From: an archaeon
Lineage (GTDB): Archaea > Iainarchaeota > Iainarchaeia > Iainarchaeales > DTGL01
Reading direction: 5' to 3'
DNA: 64,000 bases
NCBI GenBank assembly: GCA_029258755.1
Contig: JAPDKC010000009.1
Coordinates: forward strand, 46,967 to 110,966
In this document: positions 4,922 through 21,088 of the stretch, piece after piece
Layout of the letters: every line of letters starts with the position of its first letter
Position numbering within the stretch: position 1 is the stretch's first letter
The notes under the pieces: model-generated
Told to the model about the DNA's origin: nothing
The model's database searches: none
What the model saw: only the letters and a program-made list of their open reading frames with translations
Program-made: the position numbers and the translations under genes

Positions 4922-5599
4922 TCAACATATATTATCTGACCTGTGATATAATCTGACTGCTCTTTTGGAAAATTCCTTTAAATATCTCTGGCTTTTAAAT
5001 TTTTTTCTATTTCGCTCAACCACTATTGTTCCAGGAGCAATTGCGTTCACACAGATATTATACTTAGCCAGCTCAAGCGCCATAATCTTAGTTAGCATAT
5101 TTATGCCCCCTTTGGAACATGCATAAGCACATTGCCCCTCTATGGCAAATTCTCCGGAAATGGAACTTATATTGATTATTTTGCCTTTCCGTATTTTTAT
5201 CATTTCCCTTGCAACTCGTTGACCACACAAAAAGTAGCCTTTTAAGTTGGTATTAATGGTTCTATCCCATAGATCTTCAGGATAATCAAGGAACTTATGA
5301 TAAGGAACGATTGCAGCATTATTTATTAACACATCAATACGACCAAACTTTTTCATAACTTCTTTTACACCAACGTCCACTTGTTTTTTCTTCGAAACAT
5401 CTACTTTTCTGATAAAAAACGGCCTCTCTGGAGTTTCTGTTATTTGCCTTTTTATATCTCTCAAACCACGTTCGTCGATATCAAAAACAGCTACCAAATT
5501 ACCCAAATTAAAAAGTTTAAAAGCTAAAGCCCGCCCAATTCCATTTGCGCCACCAGTAATTAAAAAGACTTTTTTGTCTTCATTAAACTTTTCTTCCAT
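4922..5599 (-). CDS. Short-chain dehydrogenase/reductase (SDR); 3' end appears frameshifted
   Basis: TGGANGIGRA Rossmann motif and YACSK catalytic motif. The expected C-terminus ...SDYITGQIIYVDGGLSVKGP is encoded in another frame, ending at 4894. Confidence 0.75.
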   Translation of the reverse strand: MEEKFNEDKKVFLITGGANGIGRALAFKLFNLGNLVAVFDIDERGLRDIKRQITETPERPFFIRKVDVSKKKQVDVGVKEVMKKFGRIDVLINNAAIVPYHKFLDYPEDLWDRTINTNLKGYFLCGQRVAREMIKIRKGKIINISSISGEFAIEGQCAYACSKGGINMLTKIMALELAKYNICVNAIAPGTIVVERNRKKFKSQRYLKEFSKRAVRLYHRSDNIC

Positions 5600-5688
5600 C
5601 TTTCACCATCTTATTTTTTAAATTAAATGATAACTGCTATTTAAATAATTAATGTTTAGTAACGCCGGCGCTACTTGGCTAATTTTCA

Positions 5689-6837
5689 TCAGCAAACCCT
5701 AAAACCCGTGTATTCTCTCCTCTTTTCCGGGATCTCCCTTATGAACTCTTCCAGATACCTTTTAACCTGCAGCGCTTCATCTATGCTCTTTATCTGCTCC
5801 TTCGTTTTGAGGTTTATCAGCTTTGTTTGCTTGCCTCTTCCGATTTTGATCAAGAACTCCTCTTCAGCCTCGCCGTTTCCATTCTCTTCGAACTTCTCGA
5901 GCTTCCTCAACCGCTTCAGCAGTTTCCTCTTCTGCTCCTCCACTTTCTGGGTGAACACCTTAACAGGATCGAGGATGAAGTAGTTTCTCGGCGTTGTGTT
6001 TGAGCATCTTACCAATCCGCAGTTTATGAGCTCCTTCAGAACAGCGTAAACAGTTGCCTTGCAGATGCCGGTTTCGTCCATTATCTGCTTTGCGGTTTTG
6101 ACCTCGCTTGAAAGAAGGTTGCAGCGCTTCAGCTTCCTCATGCAGAGCTCTGCCCTTATGTCCAGCTGATTCAATGCAGTTTCTTTGTCTTTGAATGCTT
6201 TGGTATTGCATGGAACGACGATGTAGAATAGCCTGTTCCTAACAGCGTTTTCCTCAATGAAATCCTGAACGAACCTTTTGAAAGCCTGGAACTGCTCCCA
6301 TAATTTTTTCGACTTTCTCTTCTCAACTTCAAGCCCCAGATCAGCCAGATACTCATTGAGCGAGAGGTTCACGGTTCTCACAACTATCTGAATCGGGAAG
6401 CTCAATGCATTGAGAAAGTCGCGGAAAGCACTTATTACTGCTTTCTGCTCCATTGCGGAGAGCATGGAAAAGCTTATCGGCACCACCTGCAGAACAGCGC
6501 AGGCTTTGCCATCATCGAGGATTATCGCATCCCTTTCAACTCTCGAAACCCCTACAAAACGCCTAGCTTTCTCATCGAAGTAACCTGCTTTTGTGCCTGA
6601 GAGCTTGAACGAAACGATAGCTTTGAGCTTTTCAAAGAGGTTGAAGAATGCAAAGGAAACGCCGAGAGAGATCAAAACAAGGGAAAGCCCGACTTTTAGC
6701 TCAAAAAGCATTGCAGTTTTGAAGAATATTACTGCTGCAATGCCGGTAAATAAGCCTAACCAGAAAAGCTGCGGAAGGCTGAGCCCGAAGAGGATCTTTT
6801 CCTCATACTTAAGCTCTTTTGGAATCTCATAAGCCAT
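5689..6837 (-). CDS. PrgI/VirB3-like 2-TM domain plus VirB4-N-terminal-like domain plus C-terminal winged-HTH; no ATPase domain
   Basis: KELKYEEKILFGLSLPQLFWLGLF matches the PrgI/VirB3 family N-terminus, with two TM helices. The following region (DAIILDDGKACAVLQVVPISFSMLSAMEQKAVISAFRDFLNAL) resembles the VirB4/TrbE N-domain. The C-terminus is a wHTH (ETGICKATVYAVLKELINCGLV) plus coiled coil. No Walker A is present. Confidence 0.4.
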   Translation of the reverse strand: MAYEIPKELKYEEKILFGLSLPQLFWLGLFTGIAAVIFFKTAMLFELKVGLSLVLISLGVSFAFFNLFEKLKAIVSFKLSGTKAGYFDEKARRFVGVSRVERDAIILDDGKACAVLQVVPISFSMLSAMEQKAVISAFRDFLNALSFPIQIVVRTVNLSLNEYLADLGLEVEKRKSKKLWEQFQAFKRFVQDFIEENAVRNRLFYIVVPCNTKAFKDKETALNQLDIRAELCMRKLKRCNLLSSEVKTAKQIMDETGICKATVYAVLKELINCGLVRCSNTTPRNYFILDPVKVFTQKVEEQKRKLLKRLRKLEKFEENGNGEAEEEFLIKIGRGKQTKLINLKTKEQIKSIDEALQVKRYLEEFIREIPEKRREYTGFRVC

Positions 6838-6887
6838 TGCAAGACCTCGCAGAAAGGTTTAAATATTCCTGAAAGATAGTTTTAAGT

Positions 6888-7286
6888 ATGATAAAAAATA
6901 TTGCAAAACCATCAGGGGAAGAATCCAAAGGGAAATTTGACTGGGTTAAAAATTCTGCTTTAGCCGTGATCTTTTCCGCTGTCGCGCTTTGGGTTACTGC
7001 GTTCCCCTTTTTTATTAGAGGATTCTTCAAAGGGGCAAATAGGGAATTATTAGTCTTATTTGTTATTATCACGCAGTCCATTTTGGTTCCAGCTGTGCTT
7101 GTAGTCTCTTTGATAGGGCTAGCTTTGGGGGTTGTGGGGTTGATTTTAGAGCTTAGAAAGGCTGAAAAGGACCGCATCAGGCTGTTGACAGCAGTAATGG
7201 CCATTTGCGGTAATTTATTTGCTTTTATGGGCGCATTTGAAGTAGCGGCGCCGGTTTTTGTTCTTTCGTTTTGGAAGTATTTTTGA
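6888..7286 (+). CDS. Small multi-TM membrane protein (hypothetical); the strand call is uncertain
   Basis: 132 aa with 3-4 clear TM helices. The competing minus-strand ORF 6827..7294 is low-complexity (T/S/K/N-rich), as expected for an antisense reading of a hydrophobic gene. Confidence 0.3.
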   Translation: MIKNIAKPSGEESKGKFDWVKNSALAVIFSAVALWVTAFPFFIRGFFKGANRELLVLFVIITQSILVPAVLVVSLIGLALGVVGLILELRKAEKDRIRLLTAVMAICGNLFAFMGAFEVAAPVFVLSFWKYF

Positions 7287-7293
7287 TAGGCCA

Positions 7294-8256
7294 TTATATC
7301 ACGGCTCCTGTAACAGCTTTTGCAACAACCACAAGCTCGGGGTTCTGAGATGCAACCGAGGATAGGCCTTTCAATATTGCAATAACCAAAATTGCCGCAT
7401 TCACAACAGCCGCAACAATGAAGCCCACAGCAAGCGCGAATGTTCCAAAGTACTCAAGCGATGCAAACTGAGTTGTGAGCATGGAAATGCCTAAAAGCAA
7501 AGCGGCATCGATAACCTGCATGAACACGATTGCACCGAAGAAGTTCAGAATCACAGAATCCCAAGCGCGCAAAGGAATTATGAAGTAGAGGAAAATTCCT
7601 ATTGGGATGAAAATCACACCCAAAATCAAAAAGAGCTGGCGCAGTAAAAGGGTTATTGCAAGCAAGAGTGCTCCAAAAGCGTAAAAAACAATCCAGAGCA
7701 AATTCAGGGCATCGAGCTGAGCTATATCAAACAGCGAATCGAGCTTTTCAGTCCAGATTGTCAGAGCAACAGCAGAGCTGAGCTGGAGCATAAGAGAATA
7801 GAGCAGAAGAGAGGCGTTGACAGCAACCACAATAACAACAGCGTTTTTCAGCCACTCCTTTGCGCTTTTCCTCTGCACAGCATCGTACGAACCAAGAAGA
7901 AACTTCAAACCTGCAAAAACGAACAGCAAAAGGTAAAAGCAAGAGATTACTGAAACAATCACGAGCCACAGATCCTGAAAATCGTAAGGGTTTATGTTGT
8001 TCAGAACCATTGCTTTTATGAAATCGAGGATCGGAGCTACAAAGGAAACAACTGTGCCTTTGAAGGAGTCCAGAATCGCATTTGCAACGTTGCAGGCAGG
8101 TTCGAAACGGAATCCCAGAGGCCTGCGCTCGCGTTTGAGAGCAAAAGCACAAGAAACAAAAGCGGCATTAAGAAACGAGCTCTCACAGCAGACCACCCAG
8201 TACTTTTTTTGCTGCAAAAAGTGTTGCGAAGTAGAGCGAAACAAATATGCTTCCAT
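7294..8256 (-). CDS. Polytopic integral membrane protein (VirB6/CedA-like?)
   Basis: At least 6 TM helices across about 240 aa. It sits in the operon between the pilin-like and VirB3/B4-like genes. The true start may be the internal Met (MVLNNINPYDF...). Confidence 0.4.
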   Translation of the reverse strand: MEAYLFRSTSQHFLQQKKYWVVCCESSFLNAAFVSCAFALKRERRPLGFRFEPACNVANAILDSFKGTVVSFVAPILDFIKAMVLNNINPYDFQDLWLVIVSVISCFYLLLFVFAGLKFLLGSYDAVQRKSAKEWLKNAVVIVVAVNASLLLYSLMLQLSSAVALTIWTEKLDSLFDIAQLDALNLLWIVFYAFGALLLAITLLLRQLFLILGVIFIPIGIFLYFIIPLRAWDSVILNFFGAIVFMQVIDAALLLGISMLTTQFASLEYFGTFALAVGFIVAAVVNAAILVIAILKGLSSVASQNPELVVVAKAVTGAVI

Positions 8257-8443
8257 CGAAAGCGGTTTTTCCAGCTTTTTTGAGAGTAAACGAGAAAGTG
8301 CTTTGCTTTGGTGGTTCGGATATACTCAAAGCAACCGAACTCTGCGCGTATGGACCCTTCAGAATCCGAACTCAGGAATTCGGTTTTCGCTACGCCGTTT
8401 TCATCGGTTAGCGCTTTTATTCTCTGCCTGCCGTTGAAGAAAA

Positions 8444-9646
8444 CTATTTCCTTATTTGCAAGGGTTTTCCGTTTGAGGTGAGAACAGCGGTTGCAAGTAC
8501 ATAATCGTTCTCTGAAAAGCTGCCGGAATTGAGAGAAAGTGAGAGCTCTGCGGGCTTTGCTTCAATTAAACACTTATTGCTCAGATCGAACTCTTCGAAT
8601 GCGGAATAAAGCTTCATTTTGCAGGCAGGGGCTTTCGCAAAGCCAAGCTTAATGAGCTTTCTTTTTGGGCTGAGATTGGAATTAAGATCTATTAAGCCGC
8701 GCGCTGATTTTCCAAGAGCGCTTTTGCGGACCACGAAAAGAACACCGTAAGGCTTGAGTGTTGAAGCAATGTCGAAGTTTTCTTCGGAAAAGGAAAAGCT
8801 GTTCTTGCCAAAAGAAACTGTGAACTCATTTACCGGCATGGTTGATTCAATCATGTAGCGGGCTTCACTTATGCCATCTTTGAGCTCAACAGCGCTCGCG
8901 AGATTGAAGTCAAAGAAATAAGCCTTTGCTCTGAACTCATCGCTCAGCTTTAAGGAATCTGTTCGCTCTGTTGTTTTGTAGTAGTCGCATGAGGTCCAGC
9001 AGTAGATTGTGCATACCTCATTGCAGAACTGCGCGCAATGCGACTGCTTTCGAAAATGCTTTTCAATGAGCTTTGCTTTTATGAACAGCTCTGCTGAAAA
9101 ATTCAGATCTTTTTCTTTGCCTGCCGAGTAGCTTGAAACTTTTTGCGAGCCTATTTTTGAGCCATTGAGGAAAACGCTAAGATTGTCTGCAAGCACTTTG
9201 TAGGAGCGCTCTGTTTTGCAGTCGTGCTCTGCTGTGTCTTTTGGCAATACAATTTCAAAATTGCCTGCCACTAGCACCCTGCCGCTTGGCTCAGCATACC
9301 ATTGGTTGGAATCGAGATCAAAGAAAGATCTATCAATAGCAATTATCTTCAGCCAAGCGTTTTTTATTATGCCTGAGCTGTGCTGCTGCAAGTTAGCGGG
9401 CGCTTCGCTGAAATTGAGCGAGTTGTTCCAATTCCAAATGAAAGCATAATCCGGCAGTACGCCCTGCTTGCTTAGAAGGTTGAGATACAGATCCTCTTTT
9501 TGCTCAACGCTGAGGGATTCATCTGCAAGGATGTTCTCGCACTCTGACTTTTTCCAGCCGTTGAGATGATCGCAGTTGGCTGGCAGTATTGCTGAGTAAG
9601 CCGAGGTAATCAACAGTATGCAAAACAAAGCAACAAAGCCTTTCAT
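8444..9646 (-). CDS. Secreted cysteine-rich protein (signal peptide), hypothetical
   Basis: N-terminal signal MKGFVALFCILLITSAYSA and multiple Cys clusters (CDHLNGWKKSEC; HCAQFCNEVCTIYCWTSCDYY). No recognised domain. Confidence 0.45.
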   Translation of the reverse strand: MKGFVALFCILLITSAYSAILPANCDHLNGWKKSECENILADESLSVEQKEDLYLNLLSKQGVLPDYAFIWNWNNSLNFSEAPANLQQHSSGIIKNAWLKIIAIDRSFFDLDSNQWYAEPSGRVLVAGNFEIVLPKDTAEHDCKTERSYKVLADNLSVFLNGSKIGSQKVSSYSAGKEKDLNFSAELFIKAKLIEKHFRKQSHCAQFCNEVCTIYCWTSCDYYKTTERTDSLKLSDEFRAKAYFFDFNLASAVELKDGISEARYMIESTMPVNEFTVSFGKNSFSFSEENFDIASTLKPYGVLFVVRKSALGKSARGLIDLNSNLSPKRKLIKLGFAKAPACKMKLYSAFEEFDLSNKCLIEAKPAELSLSLNSGSFSENDYVLATAVLTSNGKPLQIRK

Positions 9647-9655
9647 GGAATCTCC

Positions 9656-9979
9656 TTAAGCTGCTGTTAAGAAGTTAACCAAGTATGGAGCGATCCAGAT
9701 TATGAGCAGGCCCATTACTGCATAAGAAAGCATCTGCTTGGCGCTTTCTCTTGCCTGTATGTTCTCGCCGGAAGCCATGAAGCGGAAGCCTGCAAATGTA
9801 ATAACCAAGACAGCAACAATGGAAATTAGTGTTTGCACAACCGTGTATATGCGCTCCAATGGCTCCTTTATTTTTTGCAGGTTCTCATCGCTGGTATCAG
9901 CTGCGTGCACAAAAGGCGCAGCTGAAAGCATAAAGAAAATCAAAGTCGGGACCAAAAGAGGAATTAAAGCTTCTTTCAT
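9656..9979 (-). CDS. VirB2/TrbC-like (CedA1-like) small 2-TM pilin-like protein
   Basis: 107 aa: a signal-like N-terminus ending AAPFVHA, then two hydrophobic helices separated by a short polar loop. An SD-like GGAGGTG lies 5 nt upstream of the ATG. Confidence 0.4.
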   Translation of the reverse strand: MKEALIPLLVPTLIFFMLSAAPFVHAADTSDENLQKIKEPLERIYTVVQTLISIVAVLVITFAGFRFMASGENIQARESAKQMLSYAVMGLLIIWIAPYLVNFLTAA

Positions 9980-10095
9980 AGCAGCACCTCCAAGGTTAAT
10001 TAAGGTGCTGTGCTGAACCGAAAATATATTAAAAAGAAGGGTGAAAAGAGTCTGTGGAAAAGGGCGACTATAAAATAAAAAGAGTGTAAAAAATA

Positions 10096-10923
10096 TTATT
10101 TTTCTAAATAGGCTATTGTTTTTTCTATTAGCTCAGATACTTCCAAAAATCTGCCTACTATAATCTTTTTTCGGAGAGCTTCTTCTGTTTCCTTAAAATC
10201 GGGATAACGTGCACCAACATATTTAACAAGCACCATTGACAGAACACTAAATATGAGCAAAAGAATATACGTCTTTTTCAGTGTTTTGTATAGAAAGTTA
10301 AAATTAAATCTTTTCTTATTAGCTAACTTAGCTTCTTTCAGCAAGCGACTTGAGGAAAATATGGAAGACTGTATCGCTAAAAGTTGAATAGAGTCTATCT
10401 TGGCCATTTTTTTGATACTTTTAATTAATTTAGGATACTCCTCAATCAAGTTTGCAATAGTTTCATCTTCAGAGCTTTTCAAAGAAATTTTATTAAGATT
10501 TAGGCTTTTAAGGTAATTTTTCACCTTTTTGATAGCACTTTTATCACATCCAGCGATTTTTAACGTGTAGCTTTCCAAAGAACTTAAATTGGAAAGCCAT
10601 TTATCCCTAAATGGTTTGAGCATTTTAATTAATTGATCTACCCAGTCATGGCCAAACTCTTTTAAAGAGTTAACTTTGAATTTTTCTAAACCAAATCTAC
10701 GTAAAAGCTCTTCATTCTCGTTTGAAAACACTTCTTGAGGCCATAAAAGGCCTATGTCTACAATCGCTCCTTTGCTGGCTTTCTCTACAGATTGTTGAAG
10801 AGCAAATAATGCCTGTGGGTAATATCTGTGAGCGTAGGCATACTTGGCCATTTCTAAGTCTCTCTTGGCGTACTCATACCATTTTTTTGAATCCAAACAA
10901 AGACAATGTTTAGAGTTCTTCAT
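10096..10923 (-). CDS. HEPN-domain protein with C-terminal TM segment
   Basis: The N-terminus YEYAKRDLEMAKYAYAHRYYPQALFALQQSVEKASKGAI resembles the HEPN fold. A hydrophobic segment (ILLLIFSVLSMVLV) lies near the C-terminus. Confidence 0.35.
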   Translation of the reverse strand: MKNSKHCLCLDSKKWYEYAKRDLEMAKYAYAHRYYPQALFALQQSVEKASKGAIVDIGLLWPQEVFSNENEELLRRFGLEKFKVNSLKEFGHDWVDQLIKMLKPFRDKWLSNLSSLESYTLKIAGCDKSAIKKVKNYLKSLNLNKISLKSSEDETIANLIEEYPKLIKSIKKMAKIDSIQLLAIQSSIFSSSRLLKEAKLANKKRFNFNFLYKTLKKTYILLLIFSVLSMVLVKYVGARYPDFKETEEALRKKIIVGRFLEVSELIEKTIAYLEK

Positions 10924-11061
10924 AAAATTTATTGTTTAAAGTAAAGCAGAAAAAAGGACCCTTGGCGTTATTTATATTAAGAGGGCAATCAATAGGATTT
11001 TATTTTTTATTAATAATAGATGTATTATGGCTAGAAAAAAACTTAGGGAAATGCCTAGACG

Positions 11062-11451
11062 TTGTCAAAAAAAATACTGGGCAGGGAAGAAGTACTACTT
11101 GTCAAAAGCAACACCAACCGTAAAAGTTTCAGGATATGTAAGAAAAAAGATGAGGCTTATAATACAATCATTCTAGACCGCACAATTAAATTTCTTGAGG
11201 CTCGTTTGATTGAAGCAGGCGTAGCACAAATTAGCCCGCAACTATATGTATGTATTAAGGTTATAGAAAAAATTAATGACCTCAAGGAAATTTTTGATGC
11301 AATTGAAAATGGCGAATCTGATAGGGCCCTTGCTCTGCTCGTGGAACGGGGCATATTTGAGAGTATAGAAAGTGCGAGAAGGAAGGAAGATATGTTTAGA
11401 AAAATAGAAACATATTATTGGGAAGAAATAGGGGGAACTTTAAGTGTATAA
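11062..11451 (+). CDS. Hypothetical protein
   Basis: ORF only. Its end overlaps the next ORF by 8 nt, suggesting an operon. Confidence 0.3.
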   Translation: MSKKILGREEVLLVKSNTNRKSFRICKKKDEAYNTIILDRTIKFLEARLIEAGVAQISPQLYVCIKVIEKINDLKEIFDAIENGESDRALALLVERGIFESIESARRKEDMFRKIETYYWEEIGGTLSV

Positions 11452-11746
11452 AGAACCTTTAGATCGTGATGCTCTAATAAAGGCAGTACTAAAATTTTTG
11501 TGTATAGATGATCTGCTGGCCAGCGAAAAGAAAAAGCTTAAAAAGGGAGAATTAGTTGAGTTTCTTAAAGAAGAACCCCAACTAAGAAATCTGCTCAATG
11601 AAGCATTCGAAAAAGGGTGCAAACCGTATTTAAAAAAGGAAATAATAGATAACAAAGAATTGGAACGAATCTACGGAGAGTGTATCTGGAGGATGCACTC
11701 TTACCTTAAACAGCTAGAAGAAGAAAAAGGAAAGATAAAGAAGTAG
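11444..11746 (+). CDS. Hypothetical protein (GTG start)
   Basis: ORF only; overlaps and is probably co-transcribed with 11062..11451. Confidence 0.3.
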   Translation: MYKEPLDRDALIKAVLKFLCIDDLLASEKKKLKKGELVEFLKEEPQLRNLLNEAFEKGCKPYLKKEIIDNKELERIYGECIWRMHSYLKQLEEEKGKIKK

Positions 11747-11750
11747 AATT

Positions 11751-12266
11751 TTAATAATCCTCCGGCTTCATAAATGTACAGCTGCAACCATCAAGCACAA
11801 CCCATATTCTGCCCTTTTCAATCACTCGTAATCTCATATATTCTGTATCTTCTGGATCCGGCTTCTTAAGAAGCTCAATTCCTTTCTTTACAATTTCCTT
11901 GTAATTGTCCTTTACTTCTTCGAATAGGTTCATTGTGAAAACTATTGGCTTTCCATTAGCAAATTCACCTACCTTTACCAGAACACCATCTTCAATCGCC
12001 TGCTCAAGCGGATAGCTGTCAATCACTTCGCCGAAGAATTCTTCTGGAGAAGGAGCGGCCGTTTTCTGGCCACTCCCGTTGTTTCTTATGCGCTTCACTT
12101 CGAACTCAAGGAACTGATTAAGTCTGTTTGTTAATTCCTGCTTTACCTCGAGCATGTCATCGGTTTCTTCAAGCGCAACAGTAGCACCAATGAGTATGCC
12201 TTTGCTTTCATAGTTGCCAAGGTTGATCTTTCTGGAAACGCTTACTGTGAGCTCTTTAAGCTTCAC
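11751..12266 (-). CDS. Hypothetical protein
   Basis: 171-aa ORF with no recognisable motif. Confidence 0.35.
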   Translation of the reverse strand: MKLKELTVSVSRKINLGNYESKGILIGATVALEETDDMLEVKQELTNRLNQFLEFEVKRIRNNGSGQKTAAPSPEEFFGEVIDSYPLEQAIEDGVLVKVGEFANGKPIVFTMNLFEEVKDNYKEIVKKGIELLKKPDPEDTEYMRLRVIEKGRIWVVLDGCSCTFMKPEDY

Positions 12267-12629
12267 CTGCGATCACCTCCTTTGTATTGGTTTCTGCAGC
12301 GCCAGTCAAGCGCTTCAGCCCAGCGAACAGGCTCAGGAAGCAGGTAGTCATAGCTCTGCTTTTCGCTGAGCTTAACCGAATTGAAAAAACTTTTTTGCAA
12401 GCGAGCCACCTCCTAAAAGTTTTTTCTGGAGGCGGTTTGTGGATTTTGGTGGTATTAAATCCTTTCCGAAAGGCGCGGAGCGTGCTTGCTTGCAAGCAAA
12501 AGGTTTAAACCAGCAAAAGCCAGGCCGGAAAGAAAAAACTGGAGGTGGCGAGCGAAAAAGTTGCAGAGAGGTTAAGCGGAAAGCGGCAGAGTACAGATTT
12601 TTCAATGTGGGCGGCCAAAAATAGTAAAA
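12267..12629 (+). ncRNA. Candidate structured ncRNA (possibly SRP/7S RNA); strand tentative
   Basis: This 360-nt intergenic block has much higher GC than its surroundings and only short overlapping ORFs of odd composition. There is long-range complementarity: GCCACCTCC (12405-12413) with GGAGGTGGC (12540-12548), and AGTTTTTT with AAAAAACT. The motif CCAGGCCGGAAAG resembles the SRP RNA helix-8 apex. Confidence 0.35.
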
Positions 12630-14589: not shown

Positions 14590-14720
14590 GGGAAAACCTC
14601 TGGATACGCTTAGCCGTTAAAGAATTCCTGGTACTCTAACTTATTTAAAAGCAATGGTAGAGAATTTCCGCTGACTTTTTTCACCACACGTTTAAATAGC
14701 TGAAAAAGAGGGATTAATTT

Positions 14721-15138
14721 ATGGGGGCTGGTTGTATGCATGCAAAAGAGGACTCTCTATCGGATTCTGAAATAACAGCAAAGCTTCTGGAGTTCATGTT
14801 GAGGAACAGAAAGGAGCTGAAGTTTGTTTTTGAGGAGCTTGAAAAGTACAGAATGTTAAAAGCACGGGGTGGTGGTGTTGGAGTACAAGGATCTGAAGCA
14901 CTTCGAACAGGTGCACGGAAAGCTGTTTGTGTATCTCCTTGAAGAGCTGGATAAATTCATGAGGGGATCTGATGAGGGATCTGAGCCGGAGGAGATTCAA
15001 CTCAAATAATCCGCAGGCAAACTACATAAAAATTCAGGAGAGGATTGACTCTTTGGAGCACAGGTTGAGGGAATTGGACCAGCTTATAATTGAAGGGATG
15101 AGCAGAATAAGCGAGCTGGAGAATAAGTCGAATACGTG
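14721..15138 (+). pseudogene. Coiled-coil hypothetical gene broken into three successive reading frames
   Basis: Frame 1 covers 14721-14942, frame 3 from about 14868 to 15008, and frame 2 from about 14973 to 15138. Each picks up where the previous one stops. The first junction sits at an A4 run. Confidence 0.35.
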
Positions 15139-15193
15139 AAAAAGGTTCGGGTAAACGCCTGTTTTAAATTGCATTGGCACAGTTGGTAATCTT

Positions 15194-16665: not shown

Positions 16666-17895
16666 TTAAAGTTCCCTATTTTGCCCATCTAAAAGTAACT
16701 GCTGCTGCATTGAAGCCAAAATCTGCTGAACTCTGTCAGGATTCGCCTTTGAAAGGCTCTTGACCATATCTAACAGCTGAACCAGAACAATTGAGCTTTT
16801 CTCATCCAGATGCTTTATCTCGTCCACTTCGTATTGGGCTGAAGGTTTCAATGGAAGCCAGCACTTCTCGCAGTATTCAAAGGTGACATCGTTTACATGG
16901 CTACAGCGGGGGCACTTCAAAGGCTTCAGAATATCTTCTTTCTTTTCCTCCTTCTTCAGACCGTAGAGTTTCAGGATTGCATCGTCCATCTGCTTGCCGC
17001 TCAAGTGCACATAGCGAGCTGCCATATCCGAATCGCGGACCCATCCAAAGTATTCTTTCATCTGCGCTTCCGTCAAGAACTGCGCCAAGTAGGTTGCTCT
17101 GGAGTGTCTGAAGTTGTGCGGGTTCACAGGTTTTTTCAGGCCTACCCTTCTTGCAATTTTGTGAAGCTGGAGCCTTAGTGCATCATAAGTCATCAAAGAA
17201 ACTTTGTCCACATTTGTGCTGACCCAGAGAGGCGCTTCCGGATCCTCTCTTCTGGGATGGTGGTTTATCCACTCCAGAAGGTAAAGAGCAGCACTAACCA
17301 GGCGGATTCTTCGCATGCCTGTTTTTCCGTTTATTGTGATCTTACAGCCAAATTCATCAAAGGCGACATGCTTTATTTTCATTGTTCCGATTTCGCCAGC
17401 TCTCGCACCGGATTCCCAGAGGACCGCAACAAGCGCTTTGTCCCGTTTGTTCTCGCAGAATTTGAGAAGAAGCTTTACATCCTCTGGTGTGAGCAGCTCC
17501 TCAGGAAGCTTCTTGATTCGGTTTTCCTTGACACGCATCCAAGCAACACATTCTGGGTACTCGTTGTTGCCGTTGAGCCACTTGTGGAACACTTTAAGGA
17601 CCTTGATGTAGGTGTGCACGGTTTCTTGAGATAGCCCCCTTCTCTTGAGCTCTGCTATGAATTTCATGTAATCTTCCTTTGTGGCTTTATCAAAGTCTTT
17701 ACCCAAAGCGATAGCAACAATTTTCAGAATATTTGTTTGTCTTGATATTCTCGCAACACTGAGATCTCTGGCAAAGTTGTAGTCGTGGAATTTGAGAATC
17801 AGCTCTTTGTTGTGCTTCGATATCTTTTTGGATTTTTTAATGGATTCTATTTCCTTATCTAAAAGCTTCTTATAATCGTGGAATTTTTCATACAT
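16666..17895 (-). CDS. Tyrosine-type site-specific integrase/recombinase
   Basis: C-terminal catalytic region contains R (WESGARAGE), HNFRHSRATYL and ARYVH. An N-terminal SAM-like core-binding domain is present. Confidence 0.85.
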   Translation of the reverse strand: MYEKFHDYKKLLDKEIESIKKSKKISKHNKELILKFHDYNFARDLSVARISRQTNILKIVAIALGKDFDKATKEDYMKFIAELKRRGLSQETVHTYIKVLKVFHKWLNGNNEYPECVAWMRVKENRIKKLPEELLTPEDVKLLLKFCENKRDKALVAVLWESGARAGEIGTMKIKHVAFDEFGCKITINGKTGMRRIRLVSAALYLLEWINHHPRREDPEAPLWVSTNVDKVSLMTYDALRLQLHKIARRVGLKKPVNPHNFRHSRATYLAQFLTEAQMKEYFGWVRDSDMAARYVHLSGKQMDDAILKLYGLKKEEKKEDILKPLKCPRCSHVNDVTFEYCEKCWLPLKPSAQYEVDEIKHLDEKSSIVLVQLLDMVKSLSKANPDRVQQILASMQQQLLLDGQNREL

Positions 17896-17955: not shown

Positions 17956-18096
17956 AAAAAGCCAACGCCCAGGCCGGGATTCGAACCCGGATCGCAGCCT
18001 TCCTGCAATTTGCTGAATATTAGCAGCGGGTTGCTGGGGATAATAAGGACCCGCTGGAGGTCCTTATTTCGACAGGGCTGCATCCTAACCCTTAGA
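17956..18096 (-). tRNA. tRNA-Asp(GTC) with a 69-nt intron in the anticodon loop
   Basis: Minus-strand read: acceptor GCCCAGG/CCTGGGC, T-arm CCGGGTTCGAATCCCGG, anticodon stem CAGCC/GGCTG with loop CT-GTC-G...A. The intron forms strong hairpins (AATAAGGACC/GGTCCTTATT). No CCA is encoded. Confidence 0.6.
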
Positions 18097-18156
18097 CTAC
18101 CTGGGCACAGCTTAATAAATTATAAGTTAGGTGCAAGGTTTAAAAAATAATTACTT

Positions 18157-19318: not shown

Positions 19319-21088
19319 TTATTTAAAAGCCTCTATAGCCTTTCTATAGTGCTCAATTATTTTAGCTTGTTCTTCTTTGGAAAGCTTTCTCTCATATTTA
19401 TCATCGCTTAGCTTTTTTCCTGTGCGCTTTTCCCATTCACGGGCAGGAATAGAATATTCGCGCTGTACTGAATCTCTGTAAAGCTCAGGAATAACATTAA
19501 ATGCGCAAAATGGAACTATCTTGCCGTTAGGCATCGCATAATGAATACAGCAGCGCTCAACGCGGTCAACATCATAGTTGTAAGTATCCATGAAGTGCAT
19601 CATACCTATAAAGAGCGAGCGATAATGGAACTCTTTTAAGCCGTCGTAAGAGCCGCTTATAAGCGCCTGCCTAATCATTCTAGCTAAATTGAGCCCTTTA
19701 GGTTGCTTATCTTTGTAGATAAAAGAATCGAGCTTTGCCAAAAGCTTGCCAGCACTTATTATTGTCTTTAGTTTTTTAACTCTGCTGTTTTTTATCTCCA
19801 TAGCAAGTTCCTCTAAGTATTCAAACAAACCCTCAACATCTACAAAGCGTGTTATTGGAACAAAGCGCTTACCATCTAAGAAAATATAAGTAGCAGCACC
19901 GCATGCAAAGTGGGTAGAAAACCTATATTGCGGCCTTCCCTTTATAGCTTCAACAAAATCGCTTATAGCGCTTACGCAAGGAACACAATAGAAATCCTCT
20001 AAAGCAATTTGCCCATCTGTCTGTTCCTCAATACACTTTATAACCTTTGGGATAGTAACTCTTTGCTTTTCCCTTTCCTTTCTTGGCATCATGCCTACCA
20101 AAGAAACTGGCTGGAAGTTCACGCCTCTAACAACGTCAATATTGTAGGCGGCATACCTTATAATATCGCCAAGCTCATGTGTATTGTAGCTGCCTATCAC
20201 TGTTGGCACTAAAACTATGCCTGCTTTGCGCGTTTTTCTTACATTCTCTATGGCTTTTGGGACTTCCCAAAAATTTTTTGGATTCGTTTCCGGTGTAACG
20301 CCATCAAAGCTCATATAGATTACGTTAGCGCCAGCTTCCACAATTCTTTTTACAAGCTCAGGATCCCGGCTAAATCTTATGCCATTCGTGTTAAATTGAA
20401 CGTGCTCAAAGCCTTCTTCGCGGCACATTTTTATAATCTCTACAATATCATCCCTTATTGAAGGTTCCCCTCCTGTAAGCTGAACAGCATTGCATGCTAC
20501 TGGCCTTTCATTTTTAAGCATCCTTAGCATTTCCCTTATTTGCTCCAAACTTGGCTCATATACTGGCTCATCTCTTTTTTGATAGAAGAAGCAGTACCAG
20601 CACGAAAGATCGCAGCGATTGGTTACAACTATGTTTGCCAACGCTGTGTGGCTCTTGTGCTGCTTGCACAAGCCGCAATCATTTGGACAAACAATTTCGT
20701 TTAGCTCTTTTTCCACCTGCGGATTTTCAAGTTCTATACCTGGAGAAGCAAACTTCATCTGCTTGAAGTAATAATTCGCATCTTCCCAGTAGTGATCAAC
20801 CCATAAACCATGCCTCGGGCATTCTTTGCGCAAAGAGATCTTTCCGTCCTTTTCAAATACAAGCGCCGGAATAAGCATTGCTTGCCATCTTTTTTCTTCA
20901 GCACAGGCAGGGCATAAACTCATTATAAGCCTTACCGGCCTCTCTCCTTTGCGAATAAGCTTCTTAATTATTTTTTTGCATTCTTCTTCATTAAGCTTTA
21001 CATTAGCGCTTATAGTAACCGTCCAATCTCTAAAAGCCAGGGTTCTGTCTCCGGAATATATCTTCCGCAAAAGCATACTTTTAGGCAT
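19319..21088 (-). CDS. Radical SAM protein with N-terminal Cys-rich (zinc-ribbon-like) region; function unknown
   Basis: CDLSCWYCF is a CxxxCxxC radical SAM cluster motif. Additional upstream Cys pairs are present (CPACAEE; CPNDCGLC). 589 aa. Confidence 0.6.
   Translation of the reverse strand: MPKSMLLRKIYSGDRTLAFRDWTVTISANVKLNEEECKKIIKKLIRKGERPVRLIMSLCPACAEEKRWQAMLIPALVFEKDGKISLRKECPRHGLWVDHYWEDANYYFKQMKFASPGIELENPQVEKELNEIVCPNDCGLCKQHKSHTALANIVVTNRCDLSCWYCFFYQKRDEPVYEPSLEQIREMLRMLKNERPVACNAVQLTGGEPSIRDDIVEIIKMCREEGFEHVQFNTNGIRFSRDPELVKRIVEAGANVIYMSFDGVTPETNPKNFWEVPKAIENVRKTRKAGIVLVPTVIGSYNTHELGDIIRYAAYNIDVVRGVNFQPVSLVGMMPRKEREKQRVTIPKVIKCIEEQTDGQIALEDFYCVPCVSAISDFVEAIKGRPQYRFSTHFACGAATYIFLDGKRFVPITRFVDVEGLFEYLEELAMEIKNSRVKKLKTIISAGKLLAKLDSFIYKDKQPKGLNLARMIRQALISGSYDGLKEFHYRSLFIGMMHFMDTYNYDVDRVERCCIHYAMPNGKIVPFCAFNVIPELYRDSVQREYSIPAREWEKRTGKKLSDDKYERKLSKEEQAKIIEHYRKAIEAFK

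Follow-up and report, generated by a model that had tools for sequence, protein, structure and literature searches.

A type IV secretion-like locus without its ATPase in an Iainarchaeota contig is very probably a recently inactivated copy of an operon widespread in DPANN archaea

Does a locus that resembles a type IV secretion system (T4SS) and contains no ATPase gene represent an envelope apparatus of its own kind, or is it the remainder of an ordinary one? The question is raised by a GC-rich block near one end of a 64-kb stretch of the archaeal contig JAPDKC010000009.1 (Iainarchaeota), the whole of which was analysed and is called the window here. An earlier note, made from the sequence alone, had seen in this block either a decayed conjugative or DNA-uptake element or a repurposed envelope apparatus without an ATPase. 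We consider it highly probable that the block, 5689-10070 of the window, contains a copy of a T4SS-like operon of the pilus type and that this copy was inactivated recently; the operon is widespread in DPANN (Diapherotrites, Parvarchaeota, Aenigmarchaeota, Nanoarchaeota and Nanohaloarchaeota) archaea and related to the T4SS of Patescibacteria, the Candidate Phyla Radiation (CPR). The first of the two earlier proposals is supported by a mapped deletion of the ATPase gene and by three frameshifts. The second is contradicted by the same lesions, because the ATPase was lost by the deletion, the helix-turn-helix (HTH) at the end of one protein is a by-product of a fusion, and two more genes are frameshifted.

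In the course of inactivation that we propose, a deletion between two copies of a 12-14-nt microhomology would have removed about 70 codons of the VirB4-N part, a small open reading frame (ORF), the ATPase gene and about 32 codons of a TrmB gene, and the same deletion would have left an in-frame chimeric ORF of 382 aa. Two 1-nt indels truncate a surface protein and strip it of its membrane anchor, and through a 1-nt deletion the VirB6-like protein has lost contact with the start codon and signal peptide that belong to it. Since the lost segments are still legible in shifted frames, these lesions are recent. To our knowledge, VirB4 is required in all T4SS. With no VirB4 motor and a damaged VirB6-like channel, the locus alone would presumably be unable to assemble a pilus or translocon.

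The deletion is most easily followed in the 382-aa ORF (5689-6837). Its first part matches Pfam PrgI with 31.9 bits (cut-off 27) over residues 5-70, which include two hydrophobic helices, and further matches were obtained with TrsD and with NCBIfam VirB4_plasma (positions 3-270 of 894, E 3.4e-7). Its last part matches Pfam TrmB with 35.7 bits, in which residues 241-291 lie on profile positions 17-67 of 68. Hence all three parts that had been proposed for this ORF, namely a PrgI/VirB3-like N-terminus, a VirB4-N-like middle and a terminal winged HTH, were found by Pfam and NCBIfam, and both the VirB3/PrgI and the VirB4-N (TraC-like/TrsD-like) components of a T4SS are present in the window. The suggested structural check gave the same answer for the VirB4-N part: in a Foldseek search with the AlphaFold2 (AF2) model of VirB3::VirB4-N (predicted local distance difference test, pLDDT, 79), the top 12 PDB matches were all TrwK/VirB4, although weak. 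A profile of the VirB4-N family had no match when run against PDB sequences.

The family to which the first part belongs consists of proteins of about 280-330 aa, mostly from metagenome-assembled genomes (MAGs) of the Diapherotrites/Iainarchaeota type, with 4071 cluster representatives at E≤1e-3. We examined 99 homologues, which carry PF12666 (PrgI) and PF26593 (“TraC-like”). They span just the first 65-81% of the 382-aa ORF, and none of them is fused to TrmB. The precomputed PF26593 and PF19590 matches were not reproduced by the local Pfam copy. The 382-aa ORF is a chimera, in which residues 1 to about 240 of a VirB3::VirB4-N protein, short of some 65-70 C-terminal residues, are joined in frame to TrmB from about residue 33 onward. 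The “winged HTH at the end” of the ORF is therefore explained by an in-frame fusion to a truncated TrmB; no free-standing TrmB with a complete winged HTH was found in the block, where TrmB starts at about codon 33, behind a membrane protein.

The join itself could be located by a comparison with relatives (related loci and proteins are cited below by L and P numbers). Homology to the TraC-side relatives L001, L002, L006 and L008 stops at 6105-6107, and from 6118 onward the window is homologous to L007, whose 171-aa TrmB gene is intact. Both ranges of homology cover 6105-6118, where the segment CCTTCTTTC(A/G)AGCG is common to the window, the TraC-side relatives and L007. The TrmB part of the chimera shares 93% identity with residues 30-169 of the L007 TrmB, and chimera residues 240-363 share 60% identity with the TrmB of L091, which stands directly after the ATPase there. 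If the ancestor was L091-like, the deleted segment was about 2.8 kb long and comprised the 3' end of the TraC-like gene, a small ORF, the ATPase gene, a spacer and the 5' end of TrmB.

What the operon looks like when intact can be seen in the relatives. In L002 and L008, which share 90-92% nucleotide identity with the block, the genes are intact and tightly packed, and they follow the order of pilin (107 aa), surface protein (487 aa), TrbL_3-like protein with signal peptide (297 aa) and PrgI/TraC-like protein (308 aa). In L001 and L006, a 62-aa ORF comes after the 308-aa gene, and next to it a VirB4-type ATPase (Walker A GSSGCGKS). L091, from the next closest lineage, carries on one strand TrbL, PrgI/TraC, a 59-aa ORF, a 757-aa ATPase and a 153-aa TrmB. 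Put together, these loci point to an intact operon consisting of pilin, surface protein, TrbL/VirB6-like protein, VirB3::VirB4-N, a 59-62-aa protein, a VirB4 ATPase of about 750 aa and TrmB.

To see how regularly the ATPase accompanies the family, we surveyed 86 loci by tblastn (80 of them from a scan of a genome collection), and 75 had at least 1.5 kb of downstream room. Of these 75 related loci, 72 have the ATPase as the immediate downstream neighbour, encoded on the same strand. The family ranges over Iainarchaeota, Micrarchaeota, Woese-, Pace- and Nanoarchaeia and many Patescibacteria, and the operon occurs at over 500 loci among DPANN archaea and CPR bacteria. The view that such an apparatus is not described for archaea of this kind has to be given up in the face of these database entries, and in the literature searched we found no published description of the operon in Iainarchaeota- or Woesearchaeota-type archaea. 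In the 64-kb window, no VirB4/HerA-type ATPase was detected by a Walker A scan or by tblastn with two family ATPases, just as the missing VirB4/CedB domain had been reported before.

Two side observations concern single loci. Among those surveyed, L041 and L049, both labelled Altiarchaeota, stand alone in having ample sequence downstream and yet no ATPase that could be detected at all. Their match is limited to the soluble TraC-like part (query residues 80-236), and they may represent a different, ATPase-unlinked use of the TraC-like domain. Besides, L008 (JAGHAI010000127.1) is labelled “MAG: bacterium isolate AUK226” and yet carries the archaeal-type operon with 92% nucleotide identity to the window; the bacterial label of this MAG is probably wrong.

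Two further genes of the block are damaged. Compared with L002, the surface-protein gene has a 1-nt deletion at about 8462 and a 1-nt insertion at about 8266, which cost the protein part of its last immunoglobulin (Ig)-like domain and its membrane anchor, and the lost C-terminus is still legible in shifted frames. The listed ORF 8444-9646 is the truncated product; the 400-aa secreted protein described earlier is thus present, as a frameshifted form of a 487-aa protein whose intact homologues (487-493 aa) were found in P0102-P0109, L008 and L002. The 400-aa ORF had no family match in profile scans. The AF2 model of the surface protein (pLDDT 75.5) contains tandem beta-sandwich/Ig-like domains and a C-terminal transmembrane (TM) helix, and a Foldseek search with the 487-aa model returned generic multi-Ig adhesin/macroglobulin folds only, from which the protein may be called adhesin-like. 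VirB5, VirB8 and PrgB were considered as roles for it, and none could be assigned, the structure matching generic multi-Ig folds alone. As a separate observation, the window and the close relative L090 differ in a mosaic manner: the surface-protein gene has 35 substitutions (dS 0.083), the TrbL-like gene has 2, and the PrgI/TraC part has 0, which suggests recombination limited to the surface-protein gene.

In the TrbL/VirB6-like gene, a 1-nt deletion at about 8091 relative to L002 puts the true start and the signal peptide out of frame with the body of the protein. The N-terminus of the listed 320-aa ORF (7294-8256) is spurious, and the frame-1 translation still reads VRARFLMPLLFLVLLLSNASAGLWDSVSNLP, as in L008. 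The ORF contains 6-7 hydrophobic segments, and these as well as its position in the operon fit a VirB6/TrbL channel. Homologues carry precomputed Pfam TrbL_3 matches, some of them weak, which were not reproduced locally; the protein itself had no match in the local Pfam or NCBIfam, nor did a 23-sequence profile find one among PDB sequences. Of the polytopic VirB6/CedA-like protein in the earlier account, the membrane topology stands, but the N-terminus is out of frame, and no Ced model matched the protein.

Between the TrbL-like and PrgI genes lies a 451-nt insertion, which L090 shares and L002 and L008 lack; in L001 and L006 the same site is occupied by another insert. The insertion contains an ORF on the opposite strand, predicted as a gene in L090 too, without a family match in profile scans. 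It is weakly similar (E 3e-4) to the antisense 172-aa membrane ORF of L006. The small TM protein suspected at this place is real and is encoded by this 132-aa ORF on the plus strand, and the minus-strand ORF of 155 aa has no TM segment. It follows that the co-orientation claimed for all genes of the block holds for the operon genes, which are on the minus strand, and not for this one.

The pilin gene is the sole intact gene of the operon in the window. The 107-aa protein passes the cut-offs of both Pfam TrbC (44.1 bits, cut-off 27.9) and T4SS_pilin (41.5 bits, cut-off 26.6), and it also matches the NCBIfam Mbov_0395 pilin-like model (E 1e-5), under its cut-off. A VirB2/TrbC-type pilin, as it had been recognised beforehand, is therefore present, and together with it the homology to VirB3/PrgI and VirB4-N stands upheld by Pfam and NCBIfam. 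The pilin shares 99% identity with that of L002 with a ratio of nonsynonymous to synonymous substitution rates (dN/dS) of 0.02, a conservation which mostly reflects the history predating the very recent decay. In the conserved region upstream, a TATA-like AT-rich stretch and a GGAGGTG motif appear to precede the ATG of the gene. The features discussed here are collected in Table 1.

Table 1. Features of the block and of the neighbouring region, in positions of the window
Feature	Position	Strand	Basis
3' part of chimeric ORF: TrmB-family regulator gene without the first ~32 codons	5689-6117	-	Pfam TrmB; L007
Deletion junction, 12-14-nt microhomology CCTTCTTTC(A/G)AGCG	6105-6118	.	Three-way comparison of window, TraC-side and L007
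5' part of chimeric ORF: VirB3 (PrgI, 2 TM)::VirB4-N (TraC-like/TrsD-like), residues 1 to ~240-244	6105-6837	-	Pfam, NCBIfam
451-nt insertion between TrbL-like and PrgI genes	6839-7289	.	Alignment gap versus L002, L008
132-aa, 4-TM ORF within the insertion, antisense to the operon	6888-7286	+	ORF list; predicted gene also in L090
TrbL/VirB6-like polytopic membrane protein gene, frameshifted	7294-8186	-	Comparison with L002, L008
Surface-protein pseudogene (intact form 487 aa; signal peptide, Ig-like/beta-sandwich, C-terminal TM anchor)	8183-9646	-	Comparison with L002
Pilin gene, TrbC/VirB2-like, intact, 107 aa, signal/TM + 2 TM	9656-9979	-	Pfam TrbC, T4SS_pilin
Upstream (promoter-side) region, conserved	9980-10070	-	Homology to L002 until 10063, to L090 until 10070
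171-aa ORF, moderately raised GC (GC at third codon positions, GC3, 0.436)	11751-12266	-	Synteny with operon in L090
Tyrosine integrase, 409 aa, C-terminal Zn ribbon	16666-17895	-	Pfam Phage_integrase 68 bits
Intron-containing tRNA gene, 3' end abutting integrase gene	17966-18106	-	Rfam tRNA 48.9 bits; missed by ARAGORN

The block 5689-10070 is foreign by composition. Its GC content (0.446 for 5689-9979) compares with 0.382 in the rest of the window and is the maximum among all 4.3-kb segments of the 64 kb (mean 0.387, sd 0.019). Measured per 500 nt, it is 0.42-0.47 across about 5750-10000 and 0.31-0.39 in the flanks, so the sharp rise reported at 5670-10020 is real, and the 46-50% given for it was too high. 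Tetranucleotide composition, too, sets 5689-9979 farther apart from the remaining sequence than any other such segment, and the recalculation that had been proposed as a check confirms this stretch as the most deviant one of 4.3 kb. GC3 is 0.48-0.65 in the block genes versus 0.361+/-0.055 in 46 other ORFs of the window, and amino-acid composition is therefore not the cause of the GC signal. From DNA homology to relatives, the right-hand edge of the block lies at 10063-10070, where the homology to L002 (to 10063) and L090 (to 10070) ends, and the left-hand edge lies somewhere in 5599-5720. The flanks of L002, L090 and L007 are all unlike those of the window. Long flanks were available for 34 relatives, and there the operon generally has about the GC content of its host (mean difference +0.008), and it is clearly richer in GC than the host in a few of them, L018 among them.

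Which secretion system does the intact operon encode? The 308-aa PrgI/TraC-like protein of L002 covers positions 3-284 of the 894 of VirB4_plasma, a model from mycoplasma integrative and conjugative elements (ICEs), with E 1.8e-11, and matches TrsD too. The downstream ATPase of L003 covers positions 293-893 of the same model with 277 bits, and it covers positions 191-752 of the 752 of conju_CD1110 with 323 bits (cut-off 325). Because the 308-aa protein and the ATPase cover consecutive parts of VirB4_plasma, they are a split VirB4 with VirB3 fused to its first half; single-chain fused forms of VirB4, about 900-1100 aa long, exist as well. On these profile matches, the intact system belongs to the T4SS of the FATA class of mating pair formation (MPF-FATA)/Patescibacteria type, not to Ced. 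By homology, the intact archaeal operon most likely encodes a VirB4-powered surface pilus or translocon for cell-cell interaction or macromolecule transfer. No type IV coupling protein (VirD4/T4CP) or relaxase, as conjugation would involve, was found among the scanned ORFs of the window or around L003-L005, L018 and L017, a scan which did not include an exhaustive relaxase-specific profile search.

The T4SS of Patescibacteria, represented by SEML1_0006-0019 of Ca. Southlakia epibionticum, comprises VirB2-like pilins, PrgI, TrsD-like, VirB6 and VirB4 proteins without T4CP or relaxase (PMC12102498), and it is essential for the epibiotic growth of this species (PMC10633639). The archaeal operon has the same set of parts (with a putative VirB6), a VirB4 of MPF-FATA ancestry and no recognisable coupling protein or relaxase nearby, and the PrgI/TraC-like family of the window retrieves CPR loci directly, with the ATPase adjoining. 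The two differ in that the host here is an archaeon (the window contains transcription factor B (TFB), Tes and an intron-containing tRNA gene), and in that the archaeal operons add the 487-aa Ig-like protein and TrmB and fuse PrgI to VirB4-N, whereas a survey of CPR T4SS reported no VirB3-VirB4 fusions (PMC12102498). Besides, the window copy would be non-functional, with its ATPase deleted and three frameshifts. As for the MPF-FATA systems of monoderm bacteria and mycoplasma ICEs, they provide the best-scoring curated models for the ATPase of the relatives, for the VirB4-N part (in L002 and in the window) and for the pilin, all scores on these models (VirB4_plasma/Mbov_0397, conju_CD1110, TrsD and Mbov_0395) being under the equivalog cut-offs. 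Unlike them, the archaeal operon encodes VirB4 in two separate genes, the first of which is fused to VirB3; the ATPase half is gone in the window, and the archaeal loci examined showed neither a relaxase nor a T4CP.

The block probably belongs to a larger, eroded integrative element, which includes the tyrosine integrase next to a tRNA gene at 16.7-18.1 kb, as synteny indicates. The integrase has an island-like GC3 (0.527) and scores 110 bits on a XerA-like model, under the cut-off of 220. In L018 (51% identity), L017 (41%) and L015 (34%), a homologue of it is found 2-3 kb upstream of the operon; a DUF3800 gene lies beside the integrase in L018, as in the window, and an ArdC-like gene is contained in the L017 element. 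Only 70 nt separate the integrase gene from the 3' end of the tRNA gene, the arrangement expected of a mobile element, and the tRNA gene is a candidate integration site. The 171-aa ORF upstream of the block is probably part of the same element as the operon: positions 1-329 of L090 match window 12078-11750 at 89%, and an N-terminal homologue of this ORF is found downstream of the operon in L017. Synteny in three genomes, together with composition, suggests an eroded mosaic integrative element that would extend from the tRNA and integrase genes to the TrmB remnant, about 5.7-18.1 kb. It resembles the tRNA-associated integrative elements of archaea (ICE-like elements and integrated plasmids) in its foreign block, in the integrase at a tRNA 3' end, in the integrase family found by the operon in three genomes, and in the ArdC-like anti-restriction gene of one of these three (L017). 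It departs from them in that no attachment (att) repeats, relaxase or replication genes were identified in the window, in the AT-rich defence-type cassettes interspersed in it, and in its undefined far end.

Several other explanations of the block were weighed against an inactivated copy. A functional envelope apparatus, repurposed to work without a VirB4/CedB ATPase, would agree with five open ORFs and with an ATPase truly absent from the window. We hold it to be very improbable, because the mapped deletion that made the ATPase-less state also truncated two flanking genes, two further genes are frameshifted with loss of a membrane anchor and a signal peptide, the ATPase is adjacent in nearly all related loci with room for it (72 of 75), and the TrmB fusion recurs in 0 of 99 homologues. 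It is scarcely credible, too, that errors of sequencing or assembly in the MAG produced the frameshifts and the fusion and that the real locus is undamaged. Of the three indels, two do fall in short A-runs (A5 versus A4 and A2 versus A3), and MAGs and short contigs are error-prone, but L090, an independent assembly from another run (SRR22214790) with 98% identity over window 10070-6037, has the same three indels, insertion and junction, as well as the same 400-aa and 320-aa ORFs and the same antisense insert. Since L090 carries these lesions, they are not assembly errors. Protein cluster P0101 also contains the 400-aa form, the repeat of 12-14 nt is too short for an assembly join, and the flank of the window from the HEPN gene to the pilin gene is reproduced by another contig, L089.

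Membership in the crenarchaeal Ced/Ted DNA-import systems (Sulfolobales, Thermoproteales), suggested earlier by a gene order said to mirror cedA1-cedA-cedA2-cedB, is to be given practically no weight. These systems are reduced archaeal derivatives of T4SS, and they do have the general parts list in common with our operon: a VirB2-like pilin, a VirB6-like membrane protein as channel and a VirB4-like ATPase (PMC9905601). The likeness goes no further than that. The relatives' ATPase (that of L003) covers positions 159-519 of the 590 of CedB (NF041017) with 55.6 bits, far under the cut-off of 700 and the 323 and 277 bits it reaches on conju_CD1110 and VirB4_plasma. The gene order differs, there are extra components, and PrgI/VirB3::VirB4-N, present here, is not among the listed Ced/Ted components (PMC9905601). 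The window has no ATPase to compare with CedB, and neither its pilin nor its membrane proteins gave a match to any Ced model (CedA, CedA1 or CedA2) at E≤1. A partly used remnant is unlikely, though less so than the explanations above. A second, intact operon would then supply the ATPase and the channel in trans, the pilin of the window would serve as a variant, and the chimeric, membrane-tethered HTH protein would perhaps be used. This would account for a pilin kept intact under a low dN/dS (0.02 versus L002) with its conserved upstream region; some genomes have two operon copies (SMAG_U8115 and ERP019367_co1_71), and arrays of variable pilin genes are frequent in CPR genomes (PMC12102498). 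However, no second copy was found within the 64-kb window, and the conservation of the pilin mostly predates the very recent decay.

The inactivated copy, which we prefer to all of these, has to be held against several findings that do not favour it. An undamaged, highly conserved pilin gene and a chimeric ORF that is still open may leave room for some residual function. Relaxed selection was not demonstrable against L090, since 2 substitutions in TrbL and 0 in PrgI are too few. The homology of the membrane protein to VirB6 is putative, being drawn from precomputed TrbL_3 matches that the local libraries did not reproduce. Both the length of the deletion and the position of TrmB directly after the ATPase are taken from L091, which is just 60-73% identical in protein, and the closest intact lineage is represented by short contigs. 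Upstream of the L007 TrmB there are about 900 nt of AT-rich, ORF-poor DNA with no ATPase, and the deletion could be longer than about 2.8 kb if such DNA was part of it. Finally, direct repeats of the tRNA region were not found beyond chance near 5.6-5.7 kb or elsewhere in the window (repeat search and blastn-short), and without such att repeats the link to the integrase and the tRNA gene is therefore one of synteny and composition only.

Read as an inactivated copy, what looked like an ATPase-less T4SS with a winged-HTH VirB4-N protein would be a relic of deletion and frameshift and not a new architecture, and a relic gives no basis for a new family or a functional hypothesis. More is to be learned from the operon itself, whose order from pilin to TrmB is conserved across many DPANN lineages, which is homologous to the CPR T4SS essential for epibiotic growth, and which in some genomes is a compositionally foreign second copy beside a tyrosine integrase. 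Two operon copies per genome were seen in the MAGs SMAG_U8115 (L018 and L027) and ERP019367_co1_71 (L042 and L044). For instance, in SMAG_U8115 one copy has a host-like GC content (difference -0.007) and the other is GC-rich (+0.069) and lies by an integrase and a DUF3800 gene; the pair consists of a resident copy and an acquired copy. One might speculate, and we give the idea a rather low probability, that the pilus-bearing, relaxase-less T4SS on which the epibiotic life of CPR bacteria depends also exists in DPANN archaea in a mobile form, borne with an integrase and passed horizontally between DPANN lineages as an additional, accessory copy. In that case the window would show turnover of such a copy, in which the pilin, and possibly the TrmB chimera, is kept for a resident system.

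A few observations concern the surroundings of the block. Between the 171-aa ORF and the pilin gene (10096-11746), the window and L089 have a cassette of a HEPN gene and two small ORFs, and L090, although 98% identical to the window, has a RusA resolvase gene there (345-830); this gives the impression of a hot spot for accessory or defence genes of high AT content. Two stretches between the PIN, DUF3800 and unknown genes, 12267-12629 (GC about 0.47) and 14590-15193 (about 0.43, with a GC skew of +0.2 to +0.3), are apparently non-coding and gave no Rfam match even at E≤1. Beyond the tRNA gene, the window encodes a full-length tetraether lipid synthase Tes (19319-21088, minus strand; NCBIfam 714 bits, cut-off 450), which is unexpected in a reduced archaeon, the T4SS-like genes of the window being closest to those of DPANN-type MAGs.

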